A stretch of DNA of 64,000 nucleotides, taken from NCBI GenBank assembly GCA_905178155.1, contig CAJINV010000007.1, forward strand, positions 4,110,265-4,174,264, read 5' to 3'. The translations under genes were made by a program, and so were the position numbers. Shown in pieces: positions 1,376-64,000 of the stretch (position 1 is the stretch's first letter; every line of letters starts with the position of its first letter). Source of the stretch: Amoebophrya sp. A120 (lineage: Eukaryota > Protista > Dinoflagellata). The notes below the pieces were generated by a model. It was given only the letters and a program-made list of their open reading frames with translations. It did not search any database and was not told the DNA's origin.

Positions 1376-3897
1376 ATGTACCAACAGACGGCACACCACG
1401 ACGACGAGCATGCCCGCGAAAACCGCCCGGGGTGGATCATCGTCACGGTCACGCGCCTGCTGCTGCAGCTCGCAGCTTGCGCTGTGCAGTATGCCGTGAT
1501 TCACCTGTTGTTTCTTTCCAAAGCCGGCCAGGACGTGCAGAAAAACAAGATGGACAGATTCTTCTATTACGGCACCGCGGTCGCGGTTTGGGTCACCGCG
1601 CCCATCGTCTGCCTGATCGCGCACAACGCACACCAGATCCGTTGTTGTTTCTTGCTGAAGCTGCTGACCGCGATGATGGCGGCCCTCGCCGTGGCCTACG
1701 AGACGGAGTGGCTCGGCACTTGCTTGAAAGACGCGATCAACAGTATGGGGGCGTCAACGTTGTATTTGCCTCAGACCGTAAAAAAAATTCTGCGCGCATT
1801 TTTTCGCGGCGCAAAGCTAGTAAACCTGTGCACGCTAGTGAGGGGCTGACTTGAACGCGGTTTGTTTTACCTAGCTTGTCAGCAACAGTGCTCTAGTAGG
1901 TAAGTGGGTATTGACGCGAAGGAGGGCGGGGCGCTGGGGGTTCTTCTGTGGCTGATGTTTTCACCTAGAAAACGCCGGGCGCGCGCAATATTTTGCTCCG
2001 TTTTCCGGATTCGATTGCTCTCTCCGTGCAGCTATTTGCCGCTATGGCCTGGGTCAGCGTGTGAGGCTGGAAACGCCCCGCGAGATGTCTACACAGGCCC
2101 CGGCCTCGTCGTCTCTAGCAGGCACCACGCACACACGTTGGCCGCGAAGGCCCTTCCGGAGCCCTTCCAAAAAGGGGGGGCCGGAGGGGTGCCCGGAACC
2201 CTAAAAAAAAGCCTATTGCTTTTTCTTCGAATCACGATGGTGCTACCCCTCCCCAAAAGGGGCCCCGGAACCCCTCTGGGAACCCTTCCCGAAAGGCTCT
2301 CGGGCTTTTCGCATTTTGCCGAAAAAGCCGCAAAGGCAAAATGCGCGCGCGCCTGCCGGTACACGCGTGCACAGCTGCGCGACATTAGAAACAAGGGGAG
2401 GCGCAGCCGCGGCCGGTTCCGTTTGCGCCCTCGACTCCGACCGACTTGCACAGAGTGAGGCCCATTGTCTAGCGGCTGGACTGCAAGAGGACCTGCTGCA
2501 GCACCTCCAGGCTGCAGGGGCGCTCCGAGGCAAGTCCGCGGAGCAGCAGCGCCGGATAGCTCCGTCTTTAGGCACTGAGAAGCGCTGCGAATAGGCTAGC
2601 TAGTTCATTAGGTGTGCAACATAGTGGGGGGCTATACGTGTGCAATATGATGGATATCAAATACAAAAAAAGGCGCGCGGAAAATTTTTTACAGCTTGAG
2701 GCAAATACAAGTTTGAAGGACGCGATCAACACGGAGCGAATGAAGGCGGCGATCGTTGCGAAACACAAACTGGAGGACGCCGGGGCATCGGTTTTCAACG
2801 CGACCCGGCCCTTCGAGATTTTCACAATCATTTTGGAAATCTTGACCATCATCCAGATCACGGTCGCCGCAAACTGCGGGTACCGCGACAAAATCCACGA
2901 TCTGCGGATATGACAGTGCACAACTCCCCCTCCCCCTCATTTCTATAGCATGAACGGCAAGACAAGCATCAGCAAGAATGCGGGTTTTGCATGACAAATT
3001 TACGACTGGATTGTAGTGCTATTTTGGTCACCTTCACCAGAACTTGTCATGCAAATAGTGCCATAAGGCAGCGACTGTATTCGGGCTTTAGCTGCGCAGT
3101 CTGTTAAGCATGACAAATGAGGGGGAGGAGCAGGAGTTGTGCAGTCTCATAGCGGAAACACGACGGGTACAAGGGGGTGTACGTTTCCGGTGCGCAACCG
3201 AAGCACGGGTTTAATCCGATCTTGTACTACGGGGGAAATGAATATGGATGTGTCAGAGTGGCAATCGACAAAGTTGAAATAACTTGTAATGCATAAAATC
3301 GATGCCAGTTACAAGCCCAATTTCTAAGCGGCGCATGACAAATTTGAGTAGAGCCGAAATCCAGTTTGTAATGCTGTTTGGGTAAGGGAGAAGCCTTTTT
3401 CCATGCTACTTTAGCAGCTCTATTTCTCCCCCGAAACAGGCTCACGATCTGCCTCCCTTGCCTATTCTGCAAGACAGGCATTTTCTGCGTTGCATTTTAT
3501 GCATGACAAACTATTTCAACTTTGACGATTTCAAAACTGACACTCCCATAATGGAAATCTGGATGAATTTTCAGACTCGGATGACGAGTATGAGGAAGAC
3601 GAACCGCAGGAAGTCAAGATTCTGATCAATAAGAACACGATAGCGAAGAAGAATCTGAGTCAACACCAAGGAGCTCCTGCTCGGGTAGAACTTCTTGCAC
3701 AACACCAGAACATCCACTCGGAAGATGTTGTTGATCCAGCTGATCATGCGCTGAAAACCTGCAGCACCGGGGGCATGCCGATAGCGCGCGCCGCACCGAA
3801 AAAGACGGTCTCGTTTGCAAGGAGGATTGCGTCGTGGAGCAAGGTGCGTCCAGATGAGGAGGTTGACCCTGCCTTGCTAGTCAGTCCGGAGCTGTGA
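1376..3897 (+). CDS. Multi-exon membrane protein of unknown function with an acidic C-terminal tail; exons ~1376-1761, ~2709-2908, 3157-3242, 3556-3897
   Basis: Hydrophobic ORFs 1376-1849 and 2614-2913. Removing the TIR inserts at 2909 and 3243 gives continuous ...HDLRKHDGYKGVY...YYGGNENLDEFSDSDDEYEE...SPEL*. Confidence 0.65.
1763..2707. mobile_element. ~945-bp TIR insert/intron with a GC-rich interior
   Basis: TATTTGCCTCAGACCGTAAAAAAAATTCTGCGCGCATTTTTT at the left pairs imperfectly with AAAAAAAGGCGCGCGGAAAATTTTTTACAGCTTGAGGCAAATA at the right; no clean 5-bp TSD. Confidence 0.7.
2909..3151. mobile_element. Introner family A (TATGACAGTGCACAACTCCCCCTCCCCC TIR)
   Basis: ~33-bp TIR; TSD GCGGA at 2904-2908 and 3152-3156; removal restores frame. 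Confidence 0.9.
3243..3550. mobile_element. Introner with a long (~55 bp) imperfect TIR
   Basis: TATGGATGTGTCAG...AAAGTTGAAATAACTTGTAATGCATAAAAT pairs with ATTTTATGCATGACAAACTATTTCAACTTT...CTGACACTCCCATA; TSD ATGAA/ATGGA. Confidence 0.85.
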
Positions 3898-5271
3898 AGC
3901 GGAGACAGGGTCGTGGTCGAGTTCTTCTCCAAGTAGTGGTAAGAAGAGTTATGGTTCAAGGACAACAGCTGGCTCGTATTTTTCAGCCCGGACTTAGCTT
4001 GCTTCTAAGAAATTAACGTGACTGTACAGTAGAGCTGCCGCAAGACAGAGGCAATCAATCGAGGTTGCCAGCTGACTACAGGCAATCAAATTCCGAAAAT
4101 CTCTTGTTGCACTCGCTGAAGAAATTAAGTTGTGTCTGACAACAATGTCTATCTATGGCCTGTATTCTAATGTTTGTGTTTTTGAAAAGTTTTCAGCAAA
4201 CAAATTCTGTAAGTTCACCTTCATCACGCACCGCCTTGGTAACATCTTTTTGCGAAATTAGGAAGGAAATTAGAAGCTTGTACATAGTTGTCACTTCTGG
4301 CATTGACGGTCTCGGCAGCCAAGAAATCATAATCAAACTGTAACTCTAATCTTTGCTGGCGTGATTTGATCCATTGAAATTGGTATACGAAAAACTACAA
4401 CTACTTGTCGCGGCGCAAAACGGTTTTGAGCGATATCGAGCGTCAAGATTTTGAAGGAGTTTCCTGATGCTCGCACCCATGTTCCTCATCAGAAAAGACG
4501 ATATAGCGTTTTAGTCGTGCTTACGAATATCGCTTCTCGTTCAACGAAAAATATATACAAGTCGGTTTGAGGTCGTACAAAGCCAATGACTCTGTGGCCA
4601 GGTTTTTTCGTACTTAACGGAGGATTTTTCGTGCAACAAAAGCAGACAGAGAGCTGAAAAAAAGACCACCCAACTATGCGGAGGTTAAAGCAGTGTCAAA
4701 AAATCGGCAGTACCAACATGAACAAAGCTGCGTATCTATGAACCACCATGTTCATCAGTAACAGTATCACACCAGAAGTTGCAACGAATAAACCACTTGA
4801 AAATAAAACCACGACCACAGGACTCGCAATCTTTGATCCAAAGCCCTTGGCTACGCCCCCCTGCATGCGACAGAGCTTCTTGTTCCTTTTGAAACTTAAC
4901 GGAAAAACCTACGCTTATCAAGACCGCGATCTCCGCGATCCGCAGAAAAGTCTAATTCTCAACAACATCCGAACTATTTTCCTTTGCGCTGTGTCTTCTC
5001 GTTAAACTTAAAACTTAATTCTAGTTCTGCTTTTCGCTTTTGCGTCTCTTTTCGACAACTTCTTCGAAACCGTCTCGAACCCAGTTCGACCTCAAAAAAA
5101 ATCCGCCAACCAAAACAGTAGCCTTGTGGTGAAGTACATTATTCTTCTCGCAGTGCGCTACGGTACAACTGTTCTTGATATTCTACTTCGCTGCATAAGA
5201 GTTCTTGATCGTCTCACCAGTAACACCACATAGTATAATCTTGTTGCAACATCGAGTGTAGTACCTCCATC

Positions 5272-12689: not shown

Positions 12690-15230
12690 TCGTGTATTCC
12701 GTCCGAGAGAGGGAGATCATGCCCAAGGACTACAATGCTCCCGACCATATCCGAACGAACCACTACCAGAGGGAAGTGGGTAGAAGGGAGAAAATAACCC
12801 ACGAGCGGTTCAACGCGCTCGGCACAAGCCACCACAGCGAGAAGCTGAAGGAAGAGCCCACGTTGACGCCCAAGCAGTATCCACTGCAATAAAAGTATAA
12901 TGTTCGGCGCTCGTAGTACTAGTAGGTGTAGGAGTAGCTGCAGTCTGGGATGATCTTCATGACAGAGCAGCTTATAATCTCTCTGCTTGTTTCCTCGGCA
13001 TTACGTACATTTTTCATTTTTTGTGGCAAGATCTACAGCTCGCGCGACTATACTTTTGCAATGCATAAACGGCAGGAAGAGTTCGCGAAGACGATGAAAG
13101 AGCCGCTTTACAAATTCGACTGGTATCCAGGAAAAGAACTGCGTTAGTGTAGCTCCTCTGGGGATAAACAGACAGCATGTGAATATACAGCAAAAAACTT
13201 GTCATGCGCAATTCGTAGTACATGAAAGATCGTGTGAGACTAGCGCTTGCTGCATGTGCATGTCCAGCTCCTGCATGACAAGTGGTATATTCGTGTTTTG
13301 CGTGTTTCAGTCAGCATTATCTGCAACACAAAGTCAGACTTTTATTCACACAGTTCTCTCCTTGCATAGCTGGACAGACAACTTCAAAGACCCACATTTC
13401 ATCGTCCTACCCACTGTGAATGTGTCTGGGTCTGAAATCTTGTGAGGCGACTGTGTGCATGAGAATGAAACAACCTCCAACACAGCACTGCGCACGAAAA
13501 GTTTTCTGCGGGAACCGCATGACAAATGCAAATCGCTTTTTTGCATGCACGACAATTTTTTTGGATTAAAATGACTTTCTGAGTCCTGTCGTCCAATCAC
13601 GAACAAGTTCCAGAGTACCTGGACATATTTGCATTTGATAGCGCCCAGGAAATAACAAAACAGCGTACTTTTTTAGTGTTTTCCAATGAAATTATTTTTC
13701 TCAGTAGAAGATAGCAGCTAGAGCAAATTATTCCTATTCAGCAAATAAGAAGATTACAGGGACGAAAAAGAACAGGAGTAGGTCGCGGGACAATCTAGGG
13801 CTTAGAGTCGAACAGATTACAATCATCAGAAGATAGCAGTAGCGCACCTGTGCATTGGCTGGATGTTCTCGACGATGGTTGCTGAAAAAGCTGTGTGAAA
13901 CACGTAAATGCTCTTTACTGTTGTCACTACAGATACAAAGCGCAATGGCAATACAAGACGCCAGCGGACCTGATTCCCAAACCAGACTTGAGCAAGATGA
14001 AGATGATATCCGAGGGCACGACTCCCCCTTCGTTTTCCACGTCGAAAACAGAAATATTGAATGGTTTGCCTCTTGGCACTTTTTCGGAACAAGTTATTGT
14101 CTAGTGCAAAGACGACCACGACGACGACGCTCCTGCAGTCGTGCGAATTCGTCATGCAGAAGCGGCAACTGCTTGTCGACGCTGGCTTGTATTCATTTTG
14201 CTGTTCTTGTTCATGCCCTACTATAGATAAGGGGGGCGAGGAGGGGGGGGAGTTGTGCCCTTTCATAGATGAAGCCGCAATACTACCCAAAAAACATGCT
14301 CGAGATGAACCTACCAAGAGTGAAACTGTACACGAAGATATGCATATGTTTTGCTTTTGCTTTTGTTTTGCGATGTAGTCGTGAAAAACATGCGACCATG
14401 ACGACTACACTTTCTGTACTCTTTTTGGAAAATTTGAAATATTGTTGATAGAGACTGGGACCTTCGAGTGGAGCACTCTGCTAGAGATGCTGCAACAGGA
14501 GGTCTTCATTATTTTGAAATACGTAAAAACTCAGCTACGGTATCGACCCAGTACACTACGACAATCCGCAGCACTTCGACATGAAAATACGCAATTGCAA
14601 CCTGCTTCTGAGGCTGAGACATCACATCAATTGCGCAACCTGATTTATCGAAGAAGAAGATTACACGTATATCCGTGTGTGGAATTTGATTTTTTCATTC
14701 TTGCATGACTGAAGCAGGCGTGAACGACGATCGGTCTTTGAATCGTGCAACTATGATCATTTTCGTTGTCGCCACCCTCATCATAGGATACCTGTGATCT
14801 TCGTACTTTCTTGGGCTATCAGATGATCCTTTTGCCTATGGAGGTTGATTTTTGCTTGTGCATAGAGAAACTTTTACGGTGCGGCACCTGCTCCGCCCAA
14901 GACCGTAACAAAGTCAGCGCTGAAGTGGACCAGTGAAGAGCAATGGAGTACTTACTTATAATTTGTTCGTGATAAAAAGTTGTTCTTATTTTTTATCGAT
15001 GTTATTTTGACGCAGAGCCTGCAGAGCACAATCAAAGATGGAGGATGGCGACAAGAACTCAAAAAAAAAAAAAAACAGATAACCCGTTTAACCGCAGCAC
15101 GTACAAGATAACTGGGAAACCGATTGCCCGGGAAGAGCGGAGCAACAATCTGCCACCTCTGTAGAGGCCGACCACACGAAATTAATATCCGGAGTAAGTT
15201 TATTCCGATTCGTCCCGTTCGGTTCCCGTA
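12690..15230 (+). CDS. Fragmented multi-exon gene of unknown function; true start and end uncertain, probably begins further upstream
   Basis: Removing introners joins ...EEPTLTPKQ|QEEFAKTMKEPLYKFDW|TDNFKDPHFIV|PGNNKTA and ...PDLSKMKM|KPQYYPKNMLEMNLPRVK. Confidence 0.5.
12878..13067. mobile_element. Introner family E, degenerate
   Basis: TATCCACTGCAATAAAAGTATA...TATACTTTTGCAATGCATA; diverged TSD AGCAG/AACGG. Confidence 0.65.
13124..13368. mobile_element. Introner
   Basis: TATCCAGGAAAAGAACTGCGT...ACACAGTTCTCTCCTTGCATA; TSD ACTGG/GCTGG; flanks read GTAT...ATAG. Confidence 0.75.
13408..13640. mobile_element. Introner family C, degenerate
   Basis: TACCCACTGTGAATGTGTCTGGGTCTG...GGACATATTTGCATTTGATA; TSD CGTCC/GCGCC. 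Confidence 0.65.
14007..14267. mobile_element. Introner family A, diverged
   Basis: TATCCGAGGGCACGACTCCCCC...GGGGGAGTTGTGCCCTTTCATA; TSD GATGA on both sides. Confidence 0.8.
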
Positions 15231-17261
15231 GTACAATGCCTACAGATAGATACAGGATCTGTTCTACAGTTGCGGTGTCTGGGTCTGTCACATTGAAAGC
15301 TTGTCTCCACCAACTCCATCAATCCTATTCAGCATGAAATTACATCGTGACAAGCTGACGCTAGAAGCTGAGAAAATTTGTGATGCTTGTACGTGTCGCA
15401 GTGCGGTACCACGGGACTAAATTTGTATTGCATATATCTGGTGGAAACTTCCAGGCATCCAGGGGAGCAAGATGTGCACCAGTTTCACTTTTCAATTTAG
15501 CTTCCATTCTCTGTTTTAGCAGGACCGCTATGCAAGGCAAAAGCATCGCACTGGTAAAAGTCACATGATGTTGGCGTTGTTGACTTTTCAAAAAAACAAG
15601 GTCTGAAAGATCTCGGAAAAAGAAGATGCATCCATATAATACCAGTGCGATGCTTTTGCACTGGATAACCATTTTTACCGTTTTTACATTTCATAGGACT
15701 TAGATTAACAGAATGCACAAATGAAGCCTTTCTTTGGGCTGCACTCTCATTTTAGCGATTTAGGCTGTTCTGCGTGCCTTCGCTACGATGTCATGTGAGG
15801 ATGATGAATTTAACAGTGCTTGAATGTTTAAGATTATGTTTCTTCGCCGCCGCGAATGTTTATGTTTCTCTCTTTCTCTTGTGTTTCGAGATGGTCATGG
15901 TGCTGTCACGATGAAAATGCGAATATAATCACCAGTACAGCAACTAGGTCTAGGTGCACGACGACGACCAGAGCAAGAACTGCAGCTCCAGATAGAACAC
16001 ACTGGAGCTCTTCGGAAGTGTTTCATCTTGTCAACAGCAAAGCCGACCTGGCTCTCTGGAGATGACCTGGTTCTTGCTCGACTAAGTAATAGAAGAAATG
16101 ATATACTTATATCAGAAATGTACATATACTGTGAGGAGCAGGAACGATGGTGCTCCTTCTTCAGATTTTGATTGTATCTAAAACTCGCAAAGATGAAACC
16201 ATCACCGTTGTAAAATATTTGACGAGCTTAGATTACCATGCCGCATCAAAAACGAAAAACGTCGAGGCAGCCGTGGTTATCTTTCTCATGTCACCAGGTG
16301 GGGGTCCGGTGCTCCCGCGGCCGCTCCAGCACGGCATGGTCGATTTAACGTGTGATGTCAACAAAACGCAAGTGTATAGTATCGTGTTCGCGCATTGTCG
16401 TTTTTCGTTTGTGCAGCTCGTGCATTTTCCCATCGGAATTTGTTTTTTTTTGTTACATGACGCCGCTGGTGAGCACACAACGATTTTGGTACAGCCACTC
16501 GGTTAACGCGATGACCGAGAAGCAGTCTTTCCGCCATCATGATCAAAGATCCATGTAGTACGTCGCGCTACTTGAGTGGTTCTGGTTATCTCGAGCGAAA
16601 AGTACGTAGTGGGGCAGGAGTTCTTGCGAATGTTACACGACCGTAGTATGTTCTCGCGTACTACCTCAAGTGAAGGAAATGCTGTTTTTTTTTTCGAGTG
16701 ATTTTGTTTCACGGAGGACTTGGACTTTTTCACCTTACTGGTGACCACATAAAAAGGGCTGACAGGAGCGAGGGGCGATTTTAGCACTTCCGTTCGCAAG
16801 TTCAATCATTATCATCCGCATTTCTTCGTTCGTTGAATTGCCTTCGTGTTTAGTCTTGGTTCTACCAGTGCTAGTGGCCACGCACCGCCGGGAAGGTCGT
16901 GGCTCTTCCTGACGAACGAAATTTTTTTACTTTACGTACAAAGCGGAGTAGCAATAAGTCACTTTCGCTCAACATGTCTTGAACTCGAACTCGTAGAGTT
17001 CTTCTTTGCGTAGAGGGATTTTTATTGAAATACCGCTAAAGAAAAAAGGTGAGTAATCGCGTTTCCACCTTGCCGCATGTCTACAAACAAACAAAAGAAC
17101 AACTCGTAGAGTCAAAAACAACATGTGGCGATTCCTTTGCCAGAGGATGCGAGTAAAAGAACTTAGGAATTGATATTATAAAGAAAGATGCTGGATGAAT
17201 ACAACAGTTGAGTACCTATTATCCAGTTTTTAACAAGACGAACCCCTGCTGCATCGGCGCT

Positions 17262-20200
17262 ATGGCATCGCAAAGCTCGTTATGCGTTGCAAATATGTGT
17301 TGGTCTGGAACAATGCTAATGCAACTTTTCATGCTCCTAAATCTGGAGCATGCAAAAATCTGTGTTGCATGATCACCAAAAGCTATCTACTTTTGACCAA
17401 GTTGAGGGAGTTTCGCAACATACAGGCAGGATAGACATGCGAGGGGCATCTTCTCAGTCCTCTCACAGTATCTGTTTGTTATGCTATGTCGTGCATTCCA
17501 GATCTCATGGGTCATGCAAGAAGAGCTGCATGGCACCAGACAGAGACACGTTTGCATTTGAGACTCGTGGGAGCCGCTACTCCTTTCCGACACGCCGCCT
17601 CCACAGGAGCCGAGATGTCCAGAGGATCGTAATGTTTTTATAGTAGTTCTAGTTTTGGATACTGGGACGAGTACATGAAGATTTTCATTTACGCAATCAA
17701 GTTTTTCCCGAGTGGTTCGTTTCTGAGATCTACTTTGCTGCATGAGTCGCATGTCTTTTCTTCACAACAGAAACGGGCATGAAACTGAAAAAGAAATAAC
17801 TGAGATAATATACATCCATAAAAACCAAGTATAGAAAATGAAAATTGGAAATGATGATCCATCGGCCATCGCAATACTCCCGTAGCTAAGGAGTTCAAGT
17901 TGAGAAAATTTCACGAAAATTTCCCGATGCAGATGTCAATCAGGGTGTATCAACTGCAAACATGTCTGGACCCGGAAGTAGAAATCGACTTGATGTCATA
18001 CTCCGCTAGCATGAATCTCAAGCCTGTCATGCACGTCACCCAAACGCCCCATTTTTCTGCCATGATGCAAAAACGCAGCTTCCCATGCAGGATAGTTAGA
18101 CAATGACAACACTGACAAAGCACCTCAGAGCCTTGTCATGCTGGAGCGTGAATTGTGGCAGGAGGCGTCCTCAAGACTCGCCAACCAGCATCACGAGTTT
18201 CCAAACCCAGACGCTTTTGCATTTGATAGGGAGATGGGGGGCCAGTTGATTTGTTATCCGACCGCCGCATCTCGCCATAATTGCGCAAACGGAACCCCTT
18301 GCTGCATCTATTTGCAGAAGAAACCGGACCTTCGCTTCTGGAGTCACTGTAATTATAACCACCGCTTTTGCATGGAATCACAATCAATTGTTCCTCAAGA
18401 GGAACTTTGTCTTGTAAAAAAACGGCAAAAAGTTCCTGGAGCGATCATGACGATTTTCCACAACTCGACAGCGGTTCTTATGGCAGTCTCAAAGGCTACA
18501 CCCTCGACTACCATACGACTTTTCATGCAAGGCTAAGTTCATTATCGTTATCCACAACGTGAAGGTGGCTCGCATGACAAATTCTTGAAGGGGTAAATTA
18601 ATAGCATGGAAATCCGTTCCAACTTTGTATACGCAACAAGAAAACATCAAAACTGAATGCTCCCGGCCAATATTTCTATCCTTGTTGCGCCACAAATTCA
18701 TGCAACAGTTGAAAGTCTGACCTTTGAGAATCCCATAGCTCTCGGTCTCAGCGAAGCTTGCAAATCTGCAGCTGGTCGAAGAGGTAAACATAGCTTTTTC
18801 ATGTTCTGCTTCTGATAAATAAAAGCGCATAAATCATAAATATTACGTAACTCGCCGATCATAATTGTAGTACTACACGTTCTTTCCAAGAGGACCCTCA
18901 TTTGGATATGTGCATGCCTGGTCATGAAGATTCCGCATACTCATTGCAAAAGTATCTCTATCTTCGTAGAAATAACACTATGACTCCTACGGAGATTTCA
19001 TCTTCAAGTTGAAAAATCTCATACGTCATTGATTTGCTTTGCTGGATGATGGCAGGGCATGGATGATTGAAGCTGTATTCGTCTTCATGCAGTTATTCCA
19101 TCTAGTGGGAACTACCGGAACTTACTACGATAATATTAATAACGGTGACGATATTACTTTCCTCGCAGTTGATCATACTGCAAAGAAGGCGGCACTTTTC
19201 TGCAGGCCGAACGACGCGTGGAGCGCGCGGAGCAGGGCGCACAGGAGAGATTGGAGCGATTCAAAGAGGAGTATCGTGAGAAAGAAGTGTTTCATTGTAA
19301 GGATTTTGATGCATGATTTGCATTACAAGTTCGCTACGCATGACAAAGCAGACTTGAAAACACGTTTTAAAGCACAATGTCTTACATATGGAGCAAGACA
19401 AATAATGCGTCTGTGAGTGTTGCACTTTCATATGCATCATGATCATAAGTTTCCAGCGAAGCATTTTTTTCTTCCGATAAACCGCAGCTTCTCTCGAAAA
19501 GATGCAGCCACGCAAAGTGCTCATCTTTTCAACTTTGCAAGCTATCAAATTTTGAAAAGATGCTGCTTCTGCATCTTTTCAAATTTTGATAGGTGGCTCC
19601 TCACTCTCCAAATTTTGAAAAGATGCTGAAGGAAACATCTTTTCAAAATTTGACAACCCGAACAACGCAAGTATCAAATTTTGAAAAGATGCTCTTTCTG
19701 CATCTTTTCAAATTTTGATAGGTGGCTGCTCACTTTCCAAATTTTGAAAAGATGCTGAAGGAGACATCTTTTCAAAATTTGACAACCTCAACAACACAAG
19801 CACTTGCTTTGTTGAGGTTGTCAAATTTTGAAAAGATGTCTCCTTCAGCATCTTTTCAAAATTTGACAACCTTTTTGACAACCCCTTCGATGAGGTTAAA
19901 AAAGAGCTCATTAACTTAAGCTATTCCCCACGGTATGGTGGATTTTGATAAACCTCTTTGACAACCCCTTTGATGAACCTAGACAGAGAATTGCTGACGA
20001 GAGTCCAAGGCTTTAACTTGCGCTCCTGCTGGCGGGTCGCCAGATGATAAGCAAGGCCGTGCCTCTGGCGACACCTGTTTGCTTGCCTCTTTTGTGGCTC
20101 CGAAGATTGCGAAGATGCCCCCTCGGCAAGTTTGCGAATTTTGAAAGCCACGCAGAAGAGTAGGCTGCTCACCCTTTCCGCGGCTGTCGAAATTTGAAAA

Positions 20201-23200
20201 GATGCGTTGGTAGCATCTTTTCAAATTTTGGAAGCCACAGAAGACTGAGCTGACCTCCCTTTGCGTGGTTTCTCAAATTTGAAAAGATGCTCCCTCGGCA
20301 TCTTTTCAAATCCTGAAAACCACAGATCAGCCAGCTGCCCTCCTCGTCTGCGGCATGTCAAATTTGAAAAGATGCTCCTTCAGCATCTTTTCGAATCTTG
20401 GCAACCTCAGGACAGAAAACGGATCGGCTCTTCTGCGGCTTCGAAGATTGAAAAGTTGCTTCTTTAGCATCTTTTCAAATTTTGAAAACCACAGACGAGT
20501 AAGCCGACCCCGTCTTCTGCGGCTTCAAAAATTGAAAAGATGCTCCTTCAGCATCTTTTCAAATTTTGAAAAGCACAGAAGAGCAGGCGACCCTCCTCTT
20601 TAGGGCCTTTTGAAATTCGAAGAGATGTTCCTTCAGCATCTTTTCAAATCCTGGAAACCACAGAAGAGTAAACTGCTCGGGTCTCTTGTGGCTTCGTTAT
20701 GGAAAAGATGCTCCTTCAGCATCTTTTCAAATTTTGCAGGCCAAAGGCCACGCGCTTCAGATTTGACAAGTTGCTGAAAGGGCATCTTTTCAAATCTCAA
20801 GAACCACAGGAGAGCACAGCAGCTTTTTCGTCTGTTGGTTTTCAGATTTGAATAGATGCGCCCCGAGGCATATTTCCCCGCTTCAGCCGCATCCACATTT
20901 GAAAAGGTTGCGCCATGAAACACGAGCCACCTCGTCAGGGGTTGCTCGCTCCTCAGGTCTCCCGGATCTGTCGACCCCTTTGGCTTCTCGGACAGCTGTG
21001 GTCTGTGCGCGCCTCCCTATTCTACCGAGACCTCCCATTCCAGTTGACTTTTCCGAGTTTCCCAGCCTACGCCGCCTGTCCTCATTTTATTGGGTGCGCG
21101 CCAAGTCCTGAACCGCTAGGGGTTTGGGAAGCTGCGCAGAAGATGCGGCGGGCGTTGTTTCCGAATCAGGCCCAAGCCAGGCCGGGGCTGATAAGAGGGG
21201 AGGCGCAGCCTTTCGCTTGGCTGCGCCTTGTCGAAGGTAAATTGGCCAGGGGCATTTTCCGCGTTTGTCGCTATTGCCGGGCGCCTTTCCTTACCTGCGC
21301 AAGCAGAGGCGCGCTCAGGGTCCATGGCCTCATATGATTGGGAGGCCCGTTTGGGTGGATTTTCTCTTTGGGGTGTTTGGCTTGCGTTTCTGCCCCGGGC
21401 CTCGGGGCAGAAATAGAACAGCCCGGCTTGGCGCGTTTGCAAAGGCGGACGCGCAGCCGCCATCGAAGAGGCGCTACGCGATAATCGGCGAGGGCGCCGA
21501 GCAATCAACTGGCCAAAATTTGAAAAGATGGGCGAAAAGGTGGATATTTTAGGGCCTTCACATAAGTTTCCAGCGAAGCATTTTTTTCTTCCGATAAACC
21601 GCAGCTTCTCGGTGGGCGGCGTCTGGCCTTATGGACTTCTCAAACGTTACATTGTCAACTGTAGTTACACGATTTTGTCGTGATTCAAAATCACTATCAA
21701 CATCGCCACGATCTTCAAGCTACTTCGCATGACAAATTTTCGACGCGTTAAATAGCACTAGAATCCGCGCCAAATGTGTAATGCAAGACACGCAAGGACG
21801 AGAAGGAAAGGATCTCCCTCTCAGTCTAGCCTGTGCTATTCTTGCATGACAAATCATGTAACAGTTGAGAATGTAACGGTTGAGAACGCCATAGGCCTCG
21901 AATTGCTCTTCGGATCGTGGGCCACTGAAAACCGTTATGACAGTGCACAACTCCCCCTCCCCCTCATTTCTCATGCAAAATACCCAATCCTCCCATTGCC
22001 TCTTGGCACTGTTTGCACTACAAGTTTTGATAGCCCAAATAGCACTACACTCCACGACTCCAGTGCAGCTTTGTCATGCAAAACCGGCATTCTTGCTGAT
22101 GCTTGTATTGCCGTTCATGCTATACAAATGAGGGGGAGGGGGAGTTGTGCACTGTCATAACCGTCTCCGTCGGCGGGTACGGTTCCACGAGACCGATGTA
22201 CGTATTCCCTGAACATTAACCATCCCCATCCAGTTTGTCATCGCAAAACTGCATGTAGTAAATTCAATGTGTGTAGTAGTCATGCAGAAAATGGATGGAG
22301 GTGGTTGATTTTCAGGGAATAGTACGCGCATGACCCGTATGTGGGCATGTCTGCCAACGAGAGACTGGACATAATGACCCGGAAGATCGCCCACGCAGTG
22401 GGATCCCGCCCAGCGAGGGAATACTCCTGGGAGACCAACAGCGAGAATTCGCAGGGAATGTTTGCACCCTCGGAGTCGGAACGGAGCAGCATACACCGCG
22501 AACCACCTCGACAGATCGCGTCCCATCGGAAGCAGCCGCGCGAGATGGTATGGGAAGAGGGCATATGGATTGCAAAAATGTCTGGGTCTGGAAGAATGCA
22601 GATGTTTGTCATGCTGCTTTTGCATGACATAAATATAGAGATGAAAAAGGTGATCTTCCCGCGTGTTCTTATCCCTAAGAAAAATCGCGCCATACCGTCG
22701 CGATTCGTGGGCTTTTTTTATTCTAGGCAAGGCCTGGCCTGTCTGAGGCTAACAAAAGCGCCACCGCCCAGGGCTATCCAAAGCCTTCGCCGCGCATCAT
22801 CCAGAGGGTCGCGCTTTCGTGCTTAGCGCAGCCCCAGCTCATGCGCCAGGGAACGCTCTGCACACTGACAGAATAACCGCCGGCCACTGAGTCCAAGTTC
22901 GCGCGCCCGGGCGCGAGCTGATGCCCCACCCAAAGAGCCCCCCCAAGCCGGGGCTACGCCGGCGGTCGCACCGGGCCGCGGCAGTGAGTGTGCGCGCCCA
23001 CTCGTCTCTCTTTGTGTCAGGCAGCAGATGATGGCCCCTCCGGTGTTGTCTTTGGTGCCTGCGCCGTGCCGTCGGTCCTAAATTAGGACCGGTGGGGCGC
23101 TGGCTCCATAAAATGATACGTATATGGCTATGGGACCACGTCCACGAAGCAAAGACGGTGCTTCAGCTGCGCACGTTCCCGCTCGTGCATAGATAAGAAC

Positions 23201-26200
23201 ACTACTGCAGCGACCTGCTGTGGTGTTTTGGGATGAAGCCGAGTTGTAGCTTCGGCTCCAAATGTTCCCGTTCTCGTTTTCTGTTGTTCTTATCCTCCAA
23301 CTCCGTGCATAGATAAAGAAGTTCTCATCTATGCACGGAGATGATTGGACGATCAGAATTGAAGCTTCTCCTCCAGATGTTCCCGTTCTTTCAAAATTGT
23401 TGTTCTTATCCCTCCTGTTCGTGCATAGATAAGAACACCATTTTTAGGTCGTTACAAACATGTTCTTATCTATGCACCATTTGGAGGATAAGAACAGCAC
23501 TTTTGCGAGAACGGGAACCTCTGGCGCAGAAGATGTCATTCTGCTTCGTGCCAGCCACCAACTTCAGGTCGTTACAAACGTGCTCTTATCTATGCACGGC
23601 GTGGAGGATAAGAGCAGCAGTGTTCGAGAACGGGAACATTTGGCGCAGAAGCTCCAACTCTGCTTCATGCCAAAACATCAATGCCAGGGCGTTGCAGTAG
23701 GTGTTCTTATCTATCTCTCCGAAGCGTTCAAACGAGTACCAGGCGGGAAGCTTTCAAGGTCTTCTGCCAGTGCGTCCACCATCGCCGCGAAAGCGGTGCC
23801 AACGGTGAGTGAGTGGGGCGGTGGGTGGGAGATTGGGTTGCGCTTGAAGAGTTCCAAGGGTTCACGAGGGGCCTGCGCACCAAGTCCGCACGAGCCGGCT
23901 TGCGGCCTTTTTTGGGTTGCGAGTACGTAGGGCCCGGGGCCGCGGAAAAGATGCTCGCCTGCGCCGGATGGCTGTGTTGTGAGTGCCCGTTGGGCGCGTC
24001 GATCTGCGCAATGGGGGGGCCTCATTAGTCTAGGTCTAGGTTCGCCGGGGTGCTGAAATGCCTGCTGGTTCCTCTAGAACGACGCCTGGGCCGCGTGCAA
24101 AAACCCACCAGGGGAGGCAACAGCACTTCTACGCAGGCGCGACCATAAAAACTGCAGCGCCTGCTTTGGCGCAAAAAAAAAGGCAAATCCCGACGGTATG
24201 CTGCGAATTTCTTTAGGGATAAGAACAATGCTGAAGATCACCTATTTCGTCTCTATAATAAAATAAATATCTGCCATGGAAGCTCTAGCATCACAGATTT
24301 CGAGAAGCTTCCGCTTTGCTTAATCCGCATGACAAATCCCCCACTTTGGTTACAGGAAATGGGCACCTTTTGCTGCCTATGCATGAGAGATTTGTCTGTG
24401 CTGTGAAATGCGCATCACAAGTTCGCATCCTTCCAGACCCAGACACTTTTGCATTTGATAGGGCAGTGACCACACTTACCGCAGCGGTCAAAGTAGCCAA
24501 ATCGAGGACCACACGCGCGACCCGTTCAGCGGCCCACTGACCAGCCAAGTTCCCGTGGGGGGATTCAGAACCAAGTACCAGGCTCTGGGGTCCGTTTCCG
24601 ACGTGGACGCGGCACTTGCCACTCAGGGAGACCTTGATATGGGACTCTCAAACCTTACGCTGCTCCTGCTCCTGCTCTCCACTGTAGTTTTTACATTATT
24701 CATTGCAATGTAAAAGTTTAAGTTTCATCAGATATTAACTCTAACAAACCGTACCGCAGGCGAACTGCGAGGGTTGGTGATGCTTAGCCCCTGGTCTTTT
24801 TGGTTGAAGCGAAGAAAACACCATTACAAACGGAAGCGAGCGCCAGCTAGAATGGGTGCGGCGCGTGAGTGGATACTTCTGCCCGCGGGGTCCTACACAG
24901 CGGACGGCTAAGACAGGAGCGCCCCCCCGACCTAGAGACGCTGAATCCTTCCACCACATACTAGGTGCTCGTCCCACCTAGCTGGCAATAAGTAGGTCGC
25001 TCGGTGGTCATGGTCAACGGCCCCCGCAGGTACCGGGTCACTGTTAACCGACTATGCACGCATTTCCACAACCTAGATCCTCTTCCGTATTCTACAGCCA
25101 TAATTCATCGCCACCCATGCAGAATTACGATCAGCATCGACACGATCAGGCTACTCTGTCTCATATAATGTCGACACTGGATCACTCTGCTGCTTTGGGC
25201 TTTGTCGCGCTTGTCTAGTTGGCTGTGCTTTATTGGCCGGGTGTAGTGGGTAGTTCCCGACTGGTCAGCCTTTTTCGAGGCGAGTGATCGAGGTAGCGCT
25301 CGACTTTGTATGTTAAGGTCCTCGCCGAAAAAAACCGCTTTATATCATCCTCGCCGAAAACCCAAGAAGTTGAGTGTGTGGTCCTTTGACGCTGGGTCGT
25401 TGATCCTTGGCCTTTGACGCTGGGTCGTGAGGGTTTCCTCAACTACATGATGACGAGGCTTCCAGTTCGCATGACAAATTATCAAAGGGCCAAACAGCAA
25501 CAGCACGGAGATCTTCTGTGCCAACTCTGTAATGCAAGTAGGCGCTGGTGATCCGTCGTGGTCCACCCTTTTTTCTTCATTCTTACTTTATTCTTGCATG
25601 ACGAATTGATGTAACTACAGCTGGGAATGGTGTAACGCTAACGCTTGAGAGTCCCATAGCTGAGCGACAGCGGTCCGAAGACCTGGCGGGGCGAAACCGA
25701 TTGGGTACTCATTTTTTCAGAAGAGCATGGATTCAATACAGTTTTGAGATCAACATTGTCTTGGTCGTCCTCGTCTTTCTCGTGCACCAGCACTTGGGGG
25801 ATACTTCTGAGTACACTGTGGCAAAAATGTTTTACTTCTACGGAAAAGTGTTAAACTTGAAATTTTTGATCTCACGAGCCGGTCTGGACTCTGCATGAAA
25901 ATTTTGTTCTTTTTTCTGGTTTCTTTCCCCATCCACTGCTTCACGACACCTCCACATCGCATTTGAAGGTGATCCGCTCCAGCCTCTCCAACCACCGCTG
26001 CCGACGCTGGAGGAGATAATCCAGGAGGAGGCAACGAAAACCCAGTCCATATGCATTGCAGCAAAATTATCGTACTAGCAGTAAAAATTGCAGCATGATA
26101 TTTTTTTTTCAATTTCAGGATGATAAAACTTTTTGTACCTATAAGAATGAATTTAAAATGAATGTAATGCGTGCCCCTGTTCTATGATAGAGATAGTAGA

Positions 26201-26912
26201 TTACTACGAGCAGATATGCACAGAAAAAAGTGTTACAGTTACACATTTGTTGTCAATTCAGCAACGCAAATTTATCTGCATGAGAAAGAAAACTTGCAAT
26301 GCAGAAATCCTACGGGAAAACACCTAGGAAACGAGGCTGCTATGCATATCCGGCATGACAGAGCTTGTCTGTCTTGCTTGGCCTGCAGCACAATGTGTAA
26401 CTGCAACACTCTTTTCTCGCGATAGCCGAAGTCGTGCGATACTTTTGTAATGAATAATGAATCCCGCTCGAAGATTACTCGGTGGAGAGGGTGTACTTTA
26501 ACCATGACCTCGGAAACCGGCTTTTGCAGCAAGAAGAGTTGCGACAGAGTCAACTGGTATCCATTGCAAATACGTCATCTGGGTCTGGATAGGCATAGGA
26601 GCCAACATGCTGAGCCTTGCATGGAAAATCCAAATGATCCGCCGCACGTATGGCCGCATGAGCGCATTGATTTTTACAACAAGTTTCTCGGGCCATCTTG
26701 TTATCGCGAGTTCAACATTCGTATTTAGTATGACAAACTGCCACCTTTCAGCACGACAAAATAAAAAACTGGGTAAAATAAATCCTCTTCATAATGCAGT
26801 ACAGATCCTGTTGCCCACTTCCACATCACGCATCAGAGGACATATTTGCAATGCATAACTGGCACAGCAGCAGCAGGAGGGAGGAGACCCACAAGTGGGA
26901 CAGCAAGACTGA
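17262..26912 (+). CDS. Hypothetical protein gene with ~14 introns (about 10 TIR introners plus GT-AG introns 17671-17885, 18784-19105, 19271-21566, 25705-25968)
   Basis: Manual removal of the inserts gives one frame: MASQSSWEP...MSIRV|MGGQ...STAVL|GLSEA...SDSKR|ISSEAFFSSDKPQLLGGRRLA|SNCSSDRGPLKTV|SVGGYGSTRPMY|AHDPYVGMS...WEEG|SDHTY...QGDL|ERQ...QSQL|AQQQQEGGDPQVGQQD*. The junction at 26050 is uncertain. Confidence 0.65.
17281..17563. mobile_element. Introner family C
   Basis: TATGCGTTGCAAATATGTGTTGGTCTGG...CCAGACAGAGACACGTTTGCATTTGAGA; TSD CTCGT. Confidence 0.8.
17948..18228. mobile_element. Introner family C
   Basis: TATCAACTGCAAACATGTCTGG...CCAGACGCTTTTGCATTTGATA; TSD GGGTG/GGGAG; flanks read GT...AG. 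Confidence 0.8.
18479..18737. mobile_element. Introner family B, diverged
   Basis: TATGGCAGTCTCAAAGG...CCTTTGAGAATCCCATA; TSD GTTCT/GCTCT. Confidence 0.75.
19494..21560. mobile_element. 2.07-kb insertion of palindromic tandem repeats plus a GC-rich segment, flanked by a 50-bp direct repeat
   Basis: 19444-19493 is identical to 21561-21610; about 14 copies of TTTGAAAAGATGC-n-GCATCTTTTCAAA inside. Confidence 0.75.
19545..20910. repeat. Array of palindromic AAAAGATGC...GCATCTTTT units, period ~84 bp from 20190 to 20730
   Basis: Units start near 19550, 19612, 19678, 19740, 19825, 20192, 20277, 20361, 20447, 20531, 20615, 20698 and 20761. Confidence 0.9.
21630..21893. mobile_element. Introner family B (TATGGNNTTCTCAAACGTTACATT TIR)
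   Basis: ~35-bp TIR; TSD GGCCT at 21625-21629 and 21894-21898. Confidence 0.9.
21936..22159. mobile_element. Introner family A, in the opposite orientation to the 2909 copy
   Basis: Perfect TIR of ~34 bp; TSD ACCGT. Confidence 0.92.
22203..22321. mobile_element. Introner family D (119 bp, CCATCCCCATCC TIR)
   Basis: TATTCCCTGAACATTAACCATCCCCATCCA...TGGATGGAGGTGGTTGATTTTCAGGGAATA; TSD GTACG creates GT...AG. Confidence 0.88.
22564..24460. mobile_element. Introner family C carrying a nested 1.6-kb element
   Basis: TATGGATTGCAAAAATGTCTGGGTCTGGAAG...CTTCCAGACCCAGACACTTTTGCATTTGATA; TSD GGGCA. Confidence 0.9.
22634..24257. mobile_element. 1.6-kb non-autonomous TIR element nested in an introner
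   Basis: ~65-bp imperfect TIR TATAGAGATGAAAAAGGTGATCTTC...GAAGATCACCTATTTCGTCTCTATA; TSD ATAAA at 22629-22633 and 24258-24262; internal inverted array of GTTCTTATC/GATAAGAAC units at 23180-23720. Confidence 0.88.
24638..25658. mobile_element. Family B-like introner enlarged to ~1 kb
   Basis: TATGGGACTCTCAAACCTTA...TAACGCTTGAGAGTCCCATA; TSD CTTGA/GCTGA. Confidence 0.75.
26050..26456. mobile_element. Introner family E containing a nested element at 26215-26424
   Basis: Outer TATGCATTGCAGCAAAATTATCGTAC...GTGCGATACTTTTGTAATGAATA (TSD not recognisable). Inner TATGCACAGAAAAAAGTGTTACAGTTACACATT...AATGTGTAACTGCAACACTCTTTTCTCGCGATA with TSD GCAGA/GCCGA. Confidence 0.7.
26558..26857. mobile_element. 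Introner, family C-related
   Basis: TATCCATTGCAAATACGTC...GACATATTTGCAATGCATA; TSD ACTGG. Confidence 0.82.
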
Positions 26913-38239: not shown

Positions 38240-41200
38240 ATGGGTGCAGCAGCTGGCAATGCGGATGGTTGGCCATCTCGTGGCATGCCTCGGGAACAGG
38301 CGCAAAAGGACCGAGGCCGTCTGGAGCCCACCAGCACAACCGACTTCGAAAAATCAACGACAGCATCAGATTTGTCTAATCTCTCGCCCACTCCACCTGC
38401 AATTGTAGTCGACGCTGGAAGTCAGGGTGAGGGTCAGCTGAAAAACGAAGAAGCGAATGTAAAACTACTAAGCGGAGATCATGACTGTAGTCCAGTAGAG
38501 GAGCCTGAGGCATTAGGTTTTTCAGAAACCGAAAGCACAACAGGAATAGATGTACCACGGAAGTCGAGACCGCGGACGTCGTTAACGTTATTTGATGACA
38601 CATCCGAGGACCGCAGGAGCGCGAGGACCGCGTTACATGAAAATTCTTCACGAGGACCAAGCTTTTCCTCGTCCAGACAGTACACCGAGATCCGCTGCTT
38701 CACCTTCACCTCGAAAAACCTGTACAACCTGAATTGCGGGTCTATCGAGCTGATCGACCGAGACGCGAGAATTTGTGGCTTTCAAGAACTGGACGAAAAA
38801 TTCCGCGAGTTCCTCAAAACCGATTGCTTTCTTCTCCGGCGGAACTGCGTGAACCTGAAGAAAGTCTTTCTCCGGTTGTTTCACAGAAGCCGGCACGTGG
38901 AACGGGAATTGCAGTGTCTGGCAACGTATCCTGTGCAAAAGTATCGTACTCGTATGAATTGCAGGTATGCATGACAACTCTGGTTTCCTACCCAAATCTG
39001 CATTACAAATTCCATTTTTTATTTTTTTCCTAATAAAATTTGTCATGCGATTTGTACTAGTACGATACTTTTGCAATGCATACAACGTTTTTCTTCTCCG
39101 ACGTGGAACTGGTGACGAGCAGGAGGCTTATATCTTCGCAGCTAGAACAACCTGCTGGTGTAGTTCTGGTAGCCGCGGCCGCGCCGAAACTACACGACCG
39201 AGAAGAAGGTGGTCAACATAAGGTTTCTAGTACTGCAAGTGAAACAACTTCTGAAGCAGGTGCTCAAGATGTTGAGCACGAGGACAAGAAAAACTGCTCG
39301 CCCGAAGAAGAAGAAGATGAAGAACAGGCACTGATCTGGGAGCATTCGCATCGGTACAGAGAGATCGCGGAGGGGTTTCAGTCCGCGAGGGGCGCCACGC
39401 GGGCACTCGCGGCGTTCCGGGAGCTGACCAAGGCGATTTGTTGCATTCACAGGAGTCCGACGCTGGAAGCCGCGGGGGAGGAAGTGGCAAAAGAGAAAGA
39501 CGAGGAGGATGAACATTTAGCAGTCTATTTTTGTGCTGGCCGCGCACTCAAAGACGAAAACCCTTGCACTGCGATTTTCGACAGCCTGCGGCACAGCTTG
39601 GACTCGATACGGTCGCAGATAGGAGTTGAGAACTATACAACAGAGCCACAAGAAAAGGAAAACCGAGACAACGAAATAAAGCGTGACGCCAGCGAGGTAG
39701 GTACATCAGCGCCACTTTATCTACGACAGGAGGAACGCGGCGCAATTATATCAGAGCGGCCGATGAAAGTAGAAGAAGCGATGGCAAGTGGTGTATCTTC
39801 ACTAGAAGCCCAACCGATTCTGAAGGAACTCGCGCACACTAGAAGAGCTCTGGTAACGGTTTCCGATGGTGGGAGAAATGTTGACTTGCAGAGAGCGGAG
39901 CATGAACAACAGACGTATTCTATCCCTTTCGATGAAAACTTTTTCTGCTGGGATTTGGACTTAAACGAGACCGGCTTCTGTGGAGATCCTGAAGGGCAGC
40001 TACGTGGGACAGATTTTCGGAATCGGCATGAGCTCTTCACCCATCACGGCCAGCAACATCCGTTACAAGCACTCAACCTTCTCCCACAAACCGCCTCGTC
40101 TGAAGTCCTTTTCGAACTAACCATGCTGCAAAAGAGCTTGGTCGCGCGCGGCGCTTACAAGGCGTGGCGAATACGAACGTATCTTCTAGAAGCGTGCCTG
40201 ACGTTACTGCTATTGCGGGACAAAAGCAGAGAGTTGCTGCGCGTTTTGGAGAAGGAGCTTCAGGCCATTCGTATGCAGGAGGAGCGGCTGCTGTTATCCA
40301 AGTCCGACGGACATAATTCTAACGAAAAAATCGACTATCGGCGGCACCACCTGCTCAATCGCTATCGATGTTGGCTCACTGGGTTTTGTGTCGCGTTCGA
40401 GTCTTTGACGAAGAAAGTGTTGGAGGTTGCAGTAGCAAAGAAACGGATTTACAGCGGTGGCGACGAGGGAGATGGCAGCAACAGTTTGTTTTACAGCAAT
40501 ACTGGCCAGACGAGTCATTTCTCGCCTTCGAACGCCATTGCGTCTCGTCGTGCAAGAGCAGCAGCGTCATGTCATCCAAACGGGGACGAGGCTCTTGACA
40601 TATCTTCCTTCCTCCTCAGTAAAGCCCGTTTGGTCGCGAAGCGCAAGCCTGAGATGCTCGCCGTGGGGAAGCAATCGCGTTGCAACGCGCACGGAGTACA
40701 GGCGACAAAGACTGTCTGCGTGGAGCACAATCACACAAAGGTGAGCCGCAACCAGTGTCACCAGTGCGAAACACCATTGCCGGACTTCCTTCTGACGAAG
40801 CAGCTGATATGTGTGTGGTGCGAAGACCAGATACGGAGGGAGTACGAGGATTGCCCCTTCTGCTTCGTGCAGCAGAAGATACGCGCTCGGAAGGAGGAAA
40901 TAGCGGCAACATCAAACAGAAAAAGAAGGAGCAGCAAAACTTCATCTGAACTGCCAAGCCCAGCAAGGGAACAAGTGGGGGCGGATTCTGCTTCAATCCA
41001 GCACACCAAAGAGGCGAAACATCGTCAGCAGTTCCTGTACTGCGTTCATCAGCAGAAGTGTTGCAAATGCGACTTAGATTTTACCTTCTGCGCACAGTGC
41101 GGACTCGGGCGAGGGGATGGTGATGACGTGCGAAATTTGGTGGAAAAATTATCCGATTGCAAAGCCGCCACGGTGTGCTCTTCAGCAACAGAAACGGATG

Positions 41201-56700: not shown

Positions 56701-56854
56701 GCTACCTGGGACGACTACAAAGATGACCGCGTCGGGCGGTATGCAGTCAGGAGGGATAGAAGAGGGCGATGAGGAAGAGGAGGACGAGGACGAACTCGAG
56801 GACGAAAATTATGAAAACTCTGGTGCACAACAACCACACATGCCTGCTGGTTGA
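50772..56854 (+). CDS. Cyclic-nucleotide-binding-domain ion channel (CNG/HCN/KCNH superfamily) with a long low-complexity tail; intron 52569-52751 and further downstream introns
   Basis: TM segments, FYLDLLSLFP, S4-like LKLLRFHR, a C-linker, and CNBD FSPGDLIVRQGDIGEEMYFIIRG...YFGEIALL..PRLCSVRA; downstream exon joins are uncertain. Confidence 0.8.
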
Positions 56855-62418: not shown

Positions 62419-62877
62419 ATGGCAGCGCTAGGCTACTTGAAATTTCCGACCGATACAGTCAACTTTGTTGGCAAAAAACCGCCCGGTGCGGCTTTCGGAG
62501 GTGGTGGAGATTTGATCCCTGGCAGCATCATCCCTGGCAGCGTCGTTCCCGGCACCGTGGGAGGTCCGAAAGGTGGACGCTTTTCAACAGCAAAAGCAGG
62601 TCCAGCTCCTCCGAAGGCGCTCGCGACCGGTGTGGGTCTGCAGGGCATCAACTTGAAGGCCCGGCCGAAAAAACGCATTTTGAAGCGACCTGGGGACCCC
62701 CCGAGCCCGAAGAAGCGGATCAGTTGGCGCGACGGAGCGCAGTCGATGCGAATCGTCCCGGACAGGGTCCAAGATGGAATGCAGTTGCTCGGGGTCGAAG
62801 CCCAGGTCGCCGCGGTGGAAGAGAGAAAGAACAATGAAGCCGGGGGTGGAATGATAGACGGAGAGTATGACGAGTGA
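62419..62877 (+). CDS. G/P/K-rich hypothetical protein, or a terminal exon; start uncertain
   Basis: Open frame 62275-62877 with coding-like composition; KKRISW resembles an RVxF/W PP1-docking motif. Confidence 0.5.
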   Translation: MAALGYLKFPTDTVNFVGKKPPGAAFGGGGDLIPGSIIPGSVVPGTVGGPKGGRFSTAKAGPAPPKALATGVGLQGINLKARPKKRILKRPGDPPSPKKRISWRDGAQSMRIVPDRVQDGMQLLGVEAQVAAVEERKNNEAGGGMIDGEYDE

Positions 62878-63755: not shown

Positions 63756-63889
63756 ATGGTCGACACCCTCCCCGACCTGATAGTCGAGGTTCCCGTGCAG
63801 GCGGCCTCGCTCCCGGAGGGCATCCTGGACGGCCGGTACAAGCATCTGAAGCAGAAGGTCAACCACAAAGATTGTTTTTTCTGTTCCGC
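63756..63889 (+). CDS. First exon of a gene running off the window (MVDTLPDLIVEVPV...)
   Basis: GC3-rich frame interrupted by an introner at 63890. Confidence 0.55.
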
Positions 63890-64000
63890 TATGGATTGCA
63901 AAAGTGTCTGGGTGTGGAAGAATGAAACTTGTGATGCTGCATTTGGAGTCCAAAAAAATCTGTATTGCATGAGCAGCAGAGGGAAGGCAATTTTCGCTAC
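63890..64000. mobile_element. Left end of a family C introner, truncated by the window edge
   Basis: TATGGATTGCAAAAGTGTCTGGGTGTGGAAG matches the left ends at 22564 and 60794. Confidence 0.85.

Follow-up and report, generated by a model that had tools for sequence, protein, structure and literature searches.

Inverted-repeat inserts with TAT..ATA ends, 5-bp duplications and a common internal motif in genes of Amoebophrya sp. A120

Inserts in the window and in related contigs

We analysed a 64-kb stretch of the genome of the dinoflagellate Amoebophrya sp. A120 (contig CAJINV010000007.1, positions 4,110,265 to 4,174,264 of the forward strand; hereafter the window), in which coding frames are interrupted by inserts with terminal inverted repeats (TIRs). 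The window holds 27 complete elements and one that is truncated by the window end. Intact TAT..ATA ends are present in 24 of the 27, and an exact 5-bp target-site duplication (TSD) flanks 14; in the remaining 13 the two TSD copies agree at two to four of the five positions. A single element, at 15529 (we name elements by their first position), lies beyond every reconstructed reading frame. Many elements contain a 9-letter motif, GCATGACAA, which is taken up below. The elements, listed without strand, and one host gene are as follows.

28935..32990, + strand: host gene (814-aa frame; EF-hand match, weak) with the orthologues P0001 and P0002 (Amoebophrya sp. A25)
2909..3151: family A element, 243 bp; exact TSD; lies in a + strand gene, in the reverse orientation of 21936 and 31663
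3243..3550: element of a further family, 308 bp; TSD 4/5
12878..13067: exonic family E-like element, 190 bp; TSD 3/5; motif absent even with one mismatch allowed
13124..13368: element, 245 bp; TSD 4/5
13408..13640: decayed family C element with three copies of the motif; first letters TAC; TSD 2/5
14007..14267: family A-like element, 261 bp; exact TSD
15529..15667: family E-like element, 139 bp; TSD 3/5; motif absent; not within any reconstructed frame
17281..17563: family C element; ends AGA; exact TSD
17948..18228: family C element; TSD 4/5
18479..18737: family B element; TSD 4/5
19272..21596: element, about 208 bp, whose right end occurs twice (19479 and 21596) owing to a 2.1-kb insert
21630..21893: family B element; exact TSD
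21936..22159: family A element; exact TSD; perfect 22-nt TIR
22203..22321: family D element, 119 bp; exact TSD
22564..24460: family C element, 1897 bp including a nested element; exact TSD; taking out the element plus one TSD copy restores the frame
22634..24257: nested TAT..ATA element, 1624 bp; exact 5-bp TSD; no motif
24638..25658: family B element, 1021 bp because of a core that is mostly single-copy; TSD 3/5
26050..26456: decayed family E-like element, 407 bp, host to a nested element; TSD 2/5
26215..26424: nested element, 210 bp; TSD 4/5
26558..26857: element, 300 bp; exact TSD
28994..29236: family B element; exact TSD; no gap at the junction in alignment with the A25 orthologue
30607..30838: family B element; TSD 4/5; junction without a gap; the residue in the orthologue corresponds to the 5' TSD copy
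31468..31577: family D element; exact TSD; last letters ATC; junction without a gap
31663..31879: family A element; exact TSD
32751..32899: family E element, 149 bp; TSD 4/5
38927..39082: family E element; exact TSD; removal links open stretches of 245 and 937 codons
60794..61055: family C element; exact TSD; removal links open stretches of 407 and 363 codons
63890..64000: family C element, left end only, truncated by the window end

An earlier note on this DNA, made from the sequence alone, had listed 21 starts, and every one marks a real element. Its list needs correction at 13408, 17281, 31468 and 63890, whose ends are as given above, and it is incomplete (3243, 13124, 15529, 19272, 22634, 26215 and 26558 were missed). 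The size range that it gave, mostly 110-310 bp, does not accommodate 22564, 24638 or 26050. Three elements are enlarged to 1.0-2.3 kb, and two pairs are nested, 26215 inside 26050 and 22634 inside 22564; the latter measures 1897 bp because the 1624-bp element, with a TSD of its own, sits inside it. With a depth of about 460-500, compared with about 27, this 1624-bp element is multi-copy in the DNA run, and no Pfam match was obtained in the five overlapping frames of it that were scanned.

The uniformity of ends and duplications does not depend on choosing TAT in advance. In a scan of the window with all 64 terminal trinucleotides (length 60-600 bp, three repeat regions masked), there were 14 matches with a 5-bp TSD, 10 of them TAT-starting, while other TSD lengths gave two matches at 6 bp, two at 7 bp and none at 8 or 9 bp. 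A relaxed scan for TAT..ATA (TSD with at most one mismatch, TIR score of at least 9) returned 20 matches, against none in each of 30 block shuffles; one of the 20, at 7595-8552, is probably an AT-rich chance pairing. The window scan found no TAT..ATA elements in 39083-60793. These counts bear out the earlier claim that nearly all inserts run from TAT to ATA within a 5-bp duplication.

The same signature extends beyond the window. Searching a metagenome collection with a 30-nt family C end gave 130 stretches, all on JACKZZ01 contigs, from which we took a set of 129 loci (L001-L129; 528,567 bp). An SNF2 protein encoded there is 55% identical to P0004 (Amoebophrya sp. A25), and none of the 129 loci overlaps the window exons. 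Among 297 inverted-repeat inserts with an exact 5-bp duplication, 280 start with TAT, and the corresponding counts are none at 6 bp and one at 8 bp, so that the TAT ends and 5-bp TSD described in the earlier note hold in this 528-kb census of related contigs. Since the loci were chosen by a TAT-starting family C pattern, about half of the 280 (136) belong to the cluster so selected; 144 lie outside it and are free of that selection. The TSD has no fixed sequence in the loci, and insert lengths are spread over all three phases (100, 101 and 79 by remainder modulo 3).

Contigs of the DNA run X5 that come from other loci match the window up to ATA (at 21893, 22159, 24460, 26857, 31879 and 39082) or resume matching at TAT (30607 and 38927), which supports fixed ends genome-wide, although the summed X5 depth at element ends is not equal to copy number. 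Together, loci and window elements form 30 clusters, 12 of which have two or more members. The interiors are unlike one another in at least 12 multi-member families. Even so, the families are more closely akin than the earlier note had it: an A-run at positions 11-15 is common to them, as is the internal motif. With TIRs, a TSD of fixed length, short size, many copies and no transposase in the frames scanned, the elements have the traits of miniature inverted-repeat transposable elements (MITEs).

Some other inserts differ in structure. A 2.1-kb palindromic satellite-repeat insert (19444-21610) is flanked by an exact 50-bp direct repeat, which duplicates the right end of the 19272 element together with some exon; the frame continues into later exons if removal runs to the distal copy (21596). 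At 1723-2732 lies a foldback insert with a TIR element of at least 945 bp. It lacks the motif, and on either side of it stands an imperfect direct repeat, about 20 bp long, of coding sequence. We excluded the candidate 1763-2707 from the element set because its TIR reaches past TAT and no 5-bp TSD fits at TAT. The element at 8806-9280 runs TAG..ATA, has inner hairpins and an exact duplication of 8 bp, lies in an apparent GT-AG intron and lacks the motif; going by its TSD length, it may be hAT-like. Finally, the apparent intron at 25700-25965 has a 3' end that by eye looks like the end of a decayed family C element and closes with AG, and it may be an introner turned canonical.

Probable removal from RNA

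One removal junction is seen directly. In run X1, whose RNA status is a tool's guess and which skips two introns placeable as GT-AG, a contig joins 32749 to 32904, losing 154 nt, i.e., the 149-bp element at 32751 plus 5. The skip can be placed as 32750-32903 or 32751-32904, with ends CT..AA or TA..AC. RNA-like contig pieces also begin without mismatch at 31879 and 26857, as removal of the element plus one TSD copy predicts and in disagreement with +2 removal; these are downstream pieces only. The raw RNA runs X8 and X9 placed just 3 and 2 reads, too few to inform. The removal from RNA that the earlier note had proposed thus has one junction shown and two implied, and it gains support at the protein level.

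This protein evidence comes in part from the host gene at 28935-32990. Taking out five elements and three GT/GC-AG introns gives the 814-aa frame, which drops to 32, 378, 489, 499 or 792 aa when any one of the five elements is kept. The frame is 66% identical to P0001 and 56% identical, over the searched exon, to its nearest named homologue, that of A25; no protein labelled A120 was among the matches. Aligned to the orthologues, the three junctions that fall in conserved parts show no gap, and the remaining two fall in variable parts. A second case is the SNF2 gene of locus L005, where +5 removal at a conserved junction is gap-free against six of six homologues, whereas +2 removal gives one extra residue; two further junctions in this locus lie in variable sequence, and one lies outside the frame. 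On frame evidence only, 21597-25895 is open across the 1.9-kb nested and the 1.0-kb elements.

Which TSD copy is kept can be told in three cases, and it is the 5' copy in each (RNA at 32751, orthologues at 30607 and L005); a codon-likelihood test of the retained copy was null (25/49). In loci L001-L129, 33 of 61 mismatches between TSD copies are synonymous and none creates a stop. The synonymous excess over the expectation for one free copy has p-values of up to 0.044 across 12 parameter sets, and both TSD copies may reach mRNA. We rejected conservation of TSD position 5: the window mismatches by position (4, 6, 4, 7, 1; p-value 0.048) were not replicated in the loci (19, 13, 11, 6, 12; p-value 0.13).

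A relaxed census of the loci contains 396 elements, 276 with a called strand and 120 uncalled; the strand caller is consistent within loci for 241 of 247 elements and wrong in 3 of 13 confident window cases. A GT/GC-AG intron is feasible at any register for only 3 of the 27 window elements and 19 of the 276 strand-called ones, in agreement with the earlier observation that most inserts lack GT-AG. Elements are inserted in exons in both orientations. An orientation bias of family C within genes was considered and rejected (55 versus 40, with 17 ties). A terminal stem is predicted in approximately 70% of 90 folded elements drawn from the 276.

Elsewhere in the window, two adjacent similar genes (34426-35401 and 36173-37303) are expressed and GT-AG-spliced in run X1. 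A PEX11 gene and a gene for a cyclic-nucleotide-binding membrane protein lie at 44493-46650 and 50646-56854. GC-rich islands (up to 69%) occupy 42000-44100 and 49850-50250, with no Pfam match in the frames scanned and no match in the loci. No homologue was found for the frame at 39091-41898.

The internal motif and published introners

The motif GCATGACAA is confined almost entirely to the elements. All 23 exact matches in the window fall within 6.7 kb of elements, with none in the other 57 kb; in the loci, 687 of 727 exact matches lie inside element-masked DNA. Within one mismatch it occurs in 278 of 280 locus elements, usually in three to four copies, with position peaks at 31-32 and 39-41 nt from the element ends, and it is found in all 12 multi-member families. 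The motif is constrained: single-copy changes come to 36 of 2874 (1.3%) in its GCAT core, against 814 of 24788 (3.3%) in the interior. The 15529 and 8806 elements and the nested multi-copy element of 1624 bp do not have it, and it is weak in the exonic 12878.

Relative to the gene, there are 439 sense and 459 antisense matches. This lack of strand bias means that GCATGACAA is not a single-strand RNA signal, and we rejected a branch point or any other single-strand signal on this basis. The simplest reading of the motif is a binding site for the transposase.

The inserts agree closely with introners already described in this organism. Passages of Farhat 2021 (PMC7789003) report 29,850 repeated introns in A120, a mean non-canonical intron near 240 nt, inverted repeats that start with TAT followed by an A-run, and direct repeats of 3-5 nt with one 5-bp example. 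Our elements share the TAT-starting TIR with its A-run, a direct repeat within that range (5 bp), non-canonical removal from RNA, and many families repeated across the genome. The same passages describe the direct repeats as variable and report that a family-specific inverted-repeat motif was not found, whereas our elements have a constant TSD length of 5, leave no scar on removal and are united across families by an internal motif. They also argue against general transposase-driven mobility in A120. The text of the introner papers searched does not contain GCATGACAA, though published figures (including the Farhat logos S19-S25) and Roy 2023 could show it, and in our literature searches neither a subterminal motif nor a transposase of these elements was the subject of any paper. 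The system itself is already published; GCATGACAA is, as far as these searches go, a new cis-signal within it, which makes mobility and splicing testable. In A25 the corresponding elements start with TTA instead.

A likeness to other non-canonical introns is also apparent. Portions of PMC11282704 and PMC12005148 deal with introns of euglenids and of Fritillaria, such elements being restricted to part of the genus. Like our elements, the euglenid nonconventional introns (PMC11282704, in the portions seen) have a TIR hairpin that joins the ends, TSD-like repeats, no GT-AG and a likely MITE origin; they differ in belonging to an unrelated lineage and in their end consensus. Euglenid introns of this kind leave the transcript as circular RNA with no lariat.

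Proposed origin and removal of the elements

We consider it probable that the inserts are copies of non-autonomous TIR transposons, likely the published A120-type introners, which make a 5-bp duplication and are likely removed from RNA, together with one copy of it, by machinery that does not use GT-AG. A DDE transposase acting in trans would make a 5-nt staggered cut, and GCATGACAA, about 32 and 41 nt from the ends, would likely be its subterminal binding site. In the transcript the inverted ends would pair and place the two TSD copies side by side, whereupon a modified spliceosome, or a separate nuclease and ligase, would cut within the copies in staggered register and restore the message as it was before insertion. 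Since such a removal signal would be symmetric, it would work in either orientation, and this would account for the mass invasion of exons.

Several observations weigh against this account. Only one junction is directly shown, from assembled contigs of a run taken to be RNA on a tool's guess. Frame length alone puts the phase with +5 at all five host-gene elements sixth of 243 combinations; the removal phase is fixed by RNA and orthologues and not by frame length. About 30% of the folded elements, including 12878 and 17281, have no terminal stem. The 1624-bp element has the ends and the TSD without GCATGACAA, so the motif is not required by every TAT element with a 5-bp TSD. A Pfam scan found no transposase in 36 window frames, nor in the 100 longest of 415 locus frames (at least 150 aa), which are a small genome sample; the long transposase-coding elements that the earlier note had suggested seeking did not appear in these frames. 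Lastly, the 5-bp TSD departs from the length of 6 bp that is usual in IS3EU/GingerRoot, the transposons whose ends resemble those seen here.

With no transposase found, the superfamily has to be judged from ends and TSD alone. A P-element helix-turn-helix match in a host exon (E-value 0.044) was below the cut-off. The loci contain no long repeated element; a 2459-bp TIR pair in L047 encloses a low-complexity frame without a Pfam match and was rejected as a likely chance pairing. The family A end has no match in viral contigs, and Rfam gave no match. The earlier note had not recognised the combination of ends and TSD as that of any standard superfamily. The signature is less alien than that, given the TAT starts and the 5-bp example of Farhat 2021 and a Ginger family in the dataset of Gozashti 2025 (PMC12130899, row 580, in the part available): A120 family 38, classed as TIR DNA with a 5-bp TSD, TA/TA termini, a length of about 808 bp and a Copia/Gypsy-like coding remnant. 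Our elements share its TIRs, TSD length and termini, but no element of about 808 bp was found here. Among 32 of the 58 A120 rows in that part of the dataset, most of the others are entered as "TIR DNA, Unknown", and their TSDs, called automatically, range over 2-6.

The sections at hand of PMC10045372, PMC6839031 and PMC12730594 describe IS3EU/GingerRoot as having TA..TA ends and TSDs without fixed sequence, as seen here, and the family B ends resemble the fungal IS3EU pattern TAYGG..CCRTA. Against these likenesses stands the TSD length (none at 6 bp and 297 at 5 bp in the loci). The TG..CA termini of Ginger1 and Ginger2 are absent from our elements; by PMC10045372 the TSD is 4 bp in Ginger1 and 4-5 bp in Ginger2, so that 5 bp fits Ginger2, while PMC6839031 gives 6 bp for Ginger2, each in the section seen. 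hAT5, as cited in the same part of PMC12730594, makes a 5-bp TSD like that of our elements, but no hAT transposase was seen in the frames scanned here. Going by ends and TSD, an integrase-like transposase of the IS3EU/GingerRoot/Ginger group is the most likely, at about an even chance; another group would be a distinctly weaker candidate, and a hAT5-like one weaker again. Termini of the TA type are also those of hAT elements.

It is possible, if doubtful, that GCATGACAA is mainly a removal signal, bound on double-stranded DNA or paired RNA by a host or domesticated factor that recruits the cutting machinery. The motif survives in the decayed elements 13408 and 19272, is absent where an element's own removal is unneeded (the nested 22634, 8806 in its GT-AG intron and the non-coding 15529), and its core changes more rarely than the interior. 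However, the strand balance, with antisense copies only in 42 elements, excludes a signal on single-stranded RNA; in folds, only 36 sense copies out of 148 are paired with one in antisense. Elements without the motif are equally rare among strand-called (3/276) and uncalled (3/120) ones, the exonic 12878 has no good copy, and the ten-base spacing of the peaks suits DNA binding by a transposase equally well.

A bolder version, which we hold unlikely, is that one undescribed integrase-like lineage made all the families and that a derived or co-evolved factor recognises GCATGACAA in double-stranded nucleic acid and guides a removal that is non-spliceosomal and blind to orientation. If true, Amoebophrya would possess a general-purpose transposon eraser for tens of thousands of introns, undoing in RNA a 5-nt staggered insertion.

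Less probable still is that several unrelated transposases converged on TAT ends under selection by the removal machinery. The unlike interiors of the families would fit, as would the motif-less 1624-bp element and the TA-ended 8806 element with its 8-bp duplication; the part of PMC12130899 available likewise attributes A120 introners to diverse classes. But TSD length is set by the transposase, and it is 5 in all multi-member families, with no match at 6 bp and one at 8 bp in 528 kb and with GCATGACAA common to all 12. The single transposase lineage proposed in the earlier note is plausible, favoured by the common motif and ends and weakened by the lack of a transposase in the frames scanned and by the 1624-bp element.

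Ordinary spliceosomal introners, in which ends and TSD provide the GT/GC and the AG and one codon is often added (the Micromonas and Aureococcus type), are very improbable here. GT-AG introns do occur in the same genes, and G|TAT..ATA|G would yield GT-AG in 28 of the 276 elements. This reading is nevertheless largely refuted by the scarcity of feasible GT/GC-AG registers, by the CT..AA or TA..AC of the junction shown, by the residue that +2 removal adds and homologues do not have, and by TSD positions 1 and 5, which have no fixed base on the gene strand. Least credible is excision from DNA in a life stage, as with ciliate internal eliminated sequences, the RNA then copying a repaired gene: loss of an element plus one repeat copy is the geometry of precise DNA excision, but X5 contigs, which represent one DNA sample, drop rare variants and show the best-supported joints only, cover 26558 and 24638 whole and pass both 32751 junctions unbroken.

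To return to non-autonomous transposon copies removed with one TSD copy, what is added here to the published system is one rule for all families, a removal that is scar-free and blind to orientation, and the shared motif. The rule (TAT..ATA, 5-bp TSD, element plus one copy removed, either orientation) replaces the reported variety and can be used for re-annotation of genes. The motif GCATGACAA provides handles, as bait for pull-down and as a query for autonomous elements. These handles bear on how Amoebophrya, apparently lacking a U1 snRNA according to passages of PMC7789003, manages to remove non-canonical introns that number in the tens of thousands.

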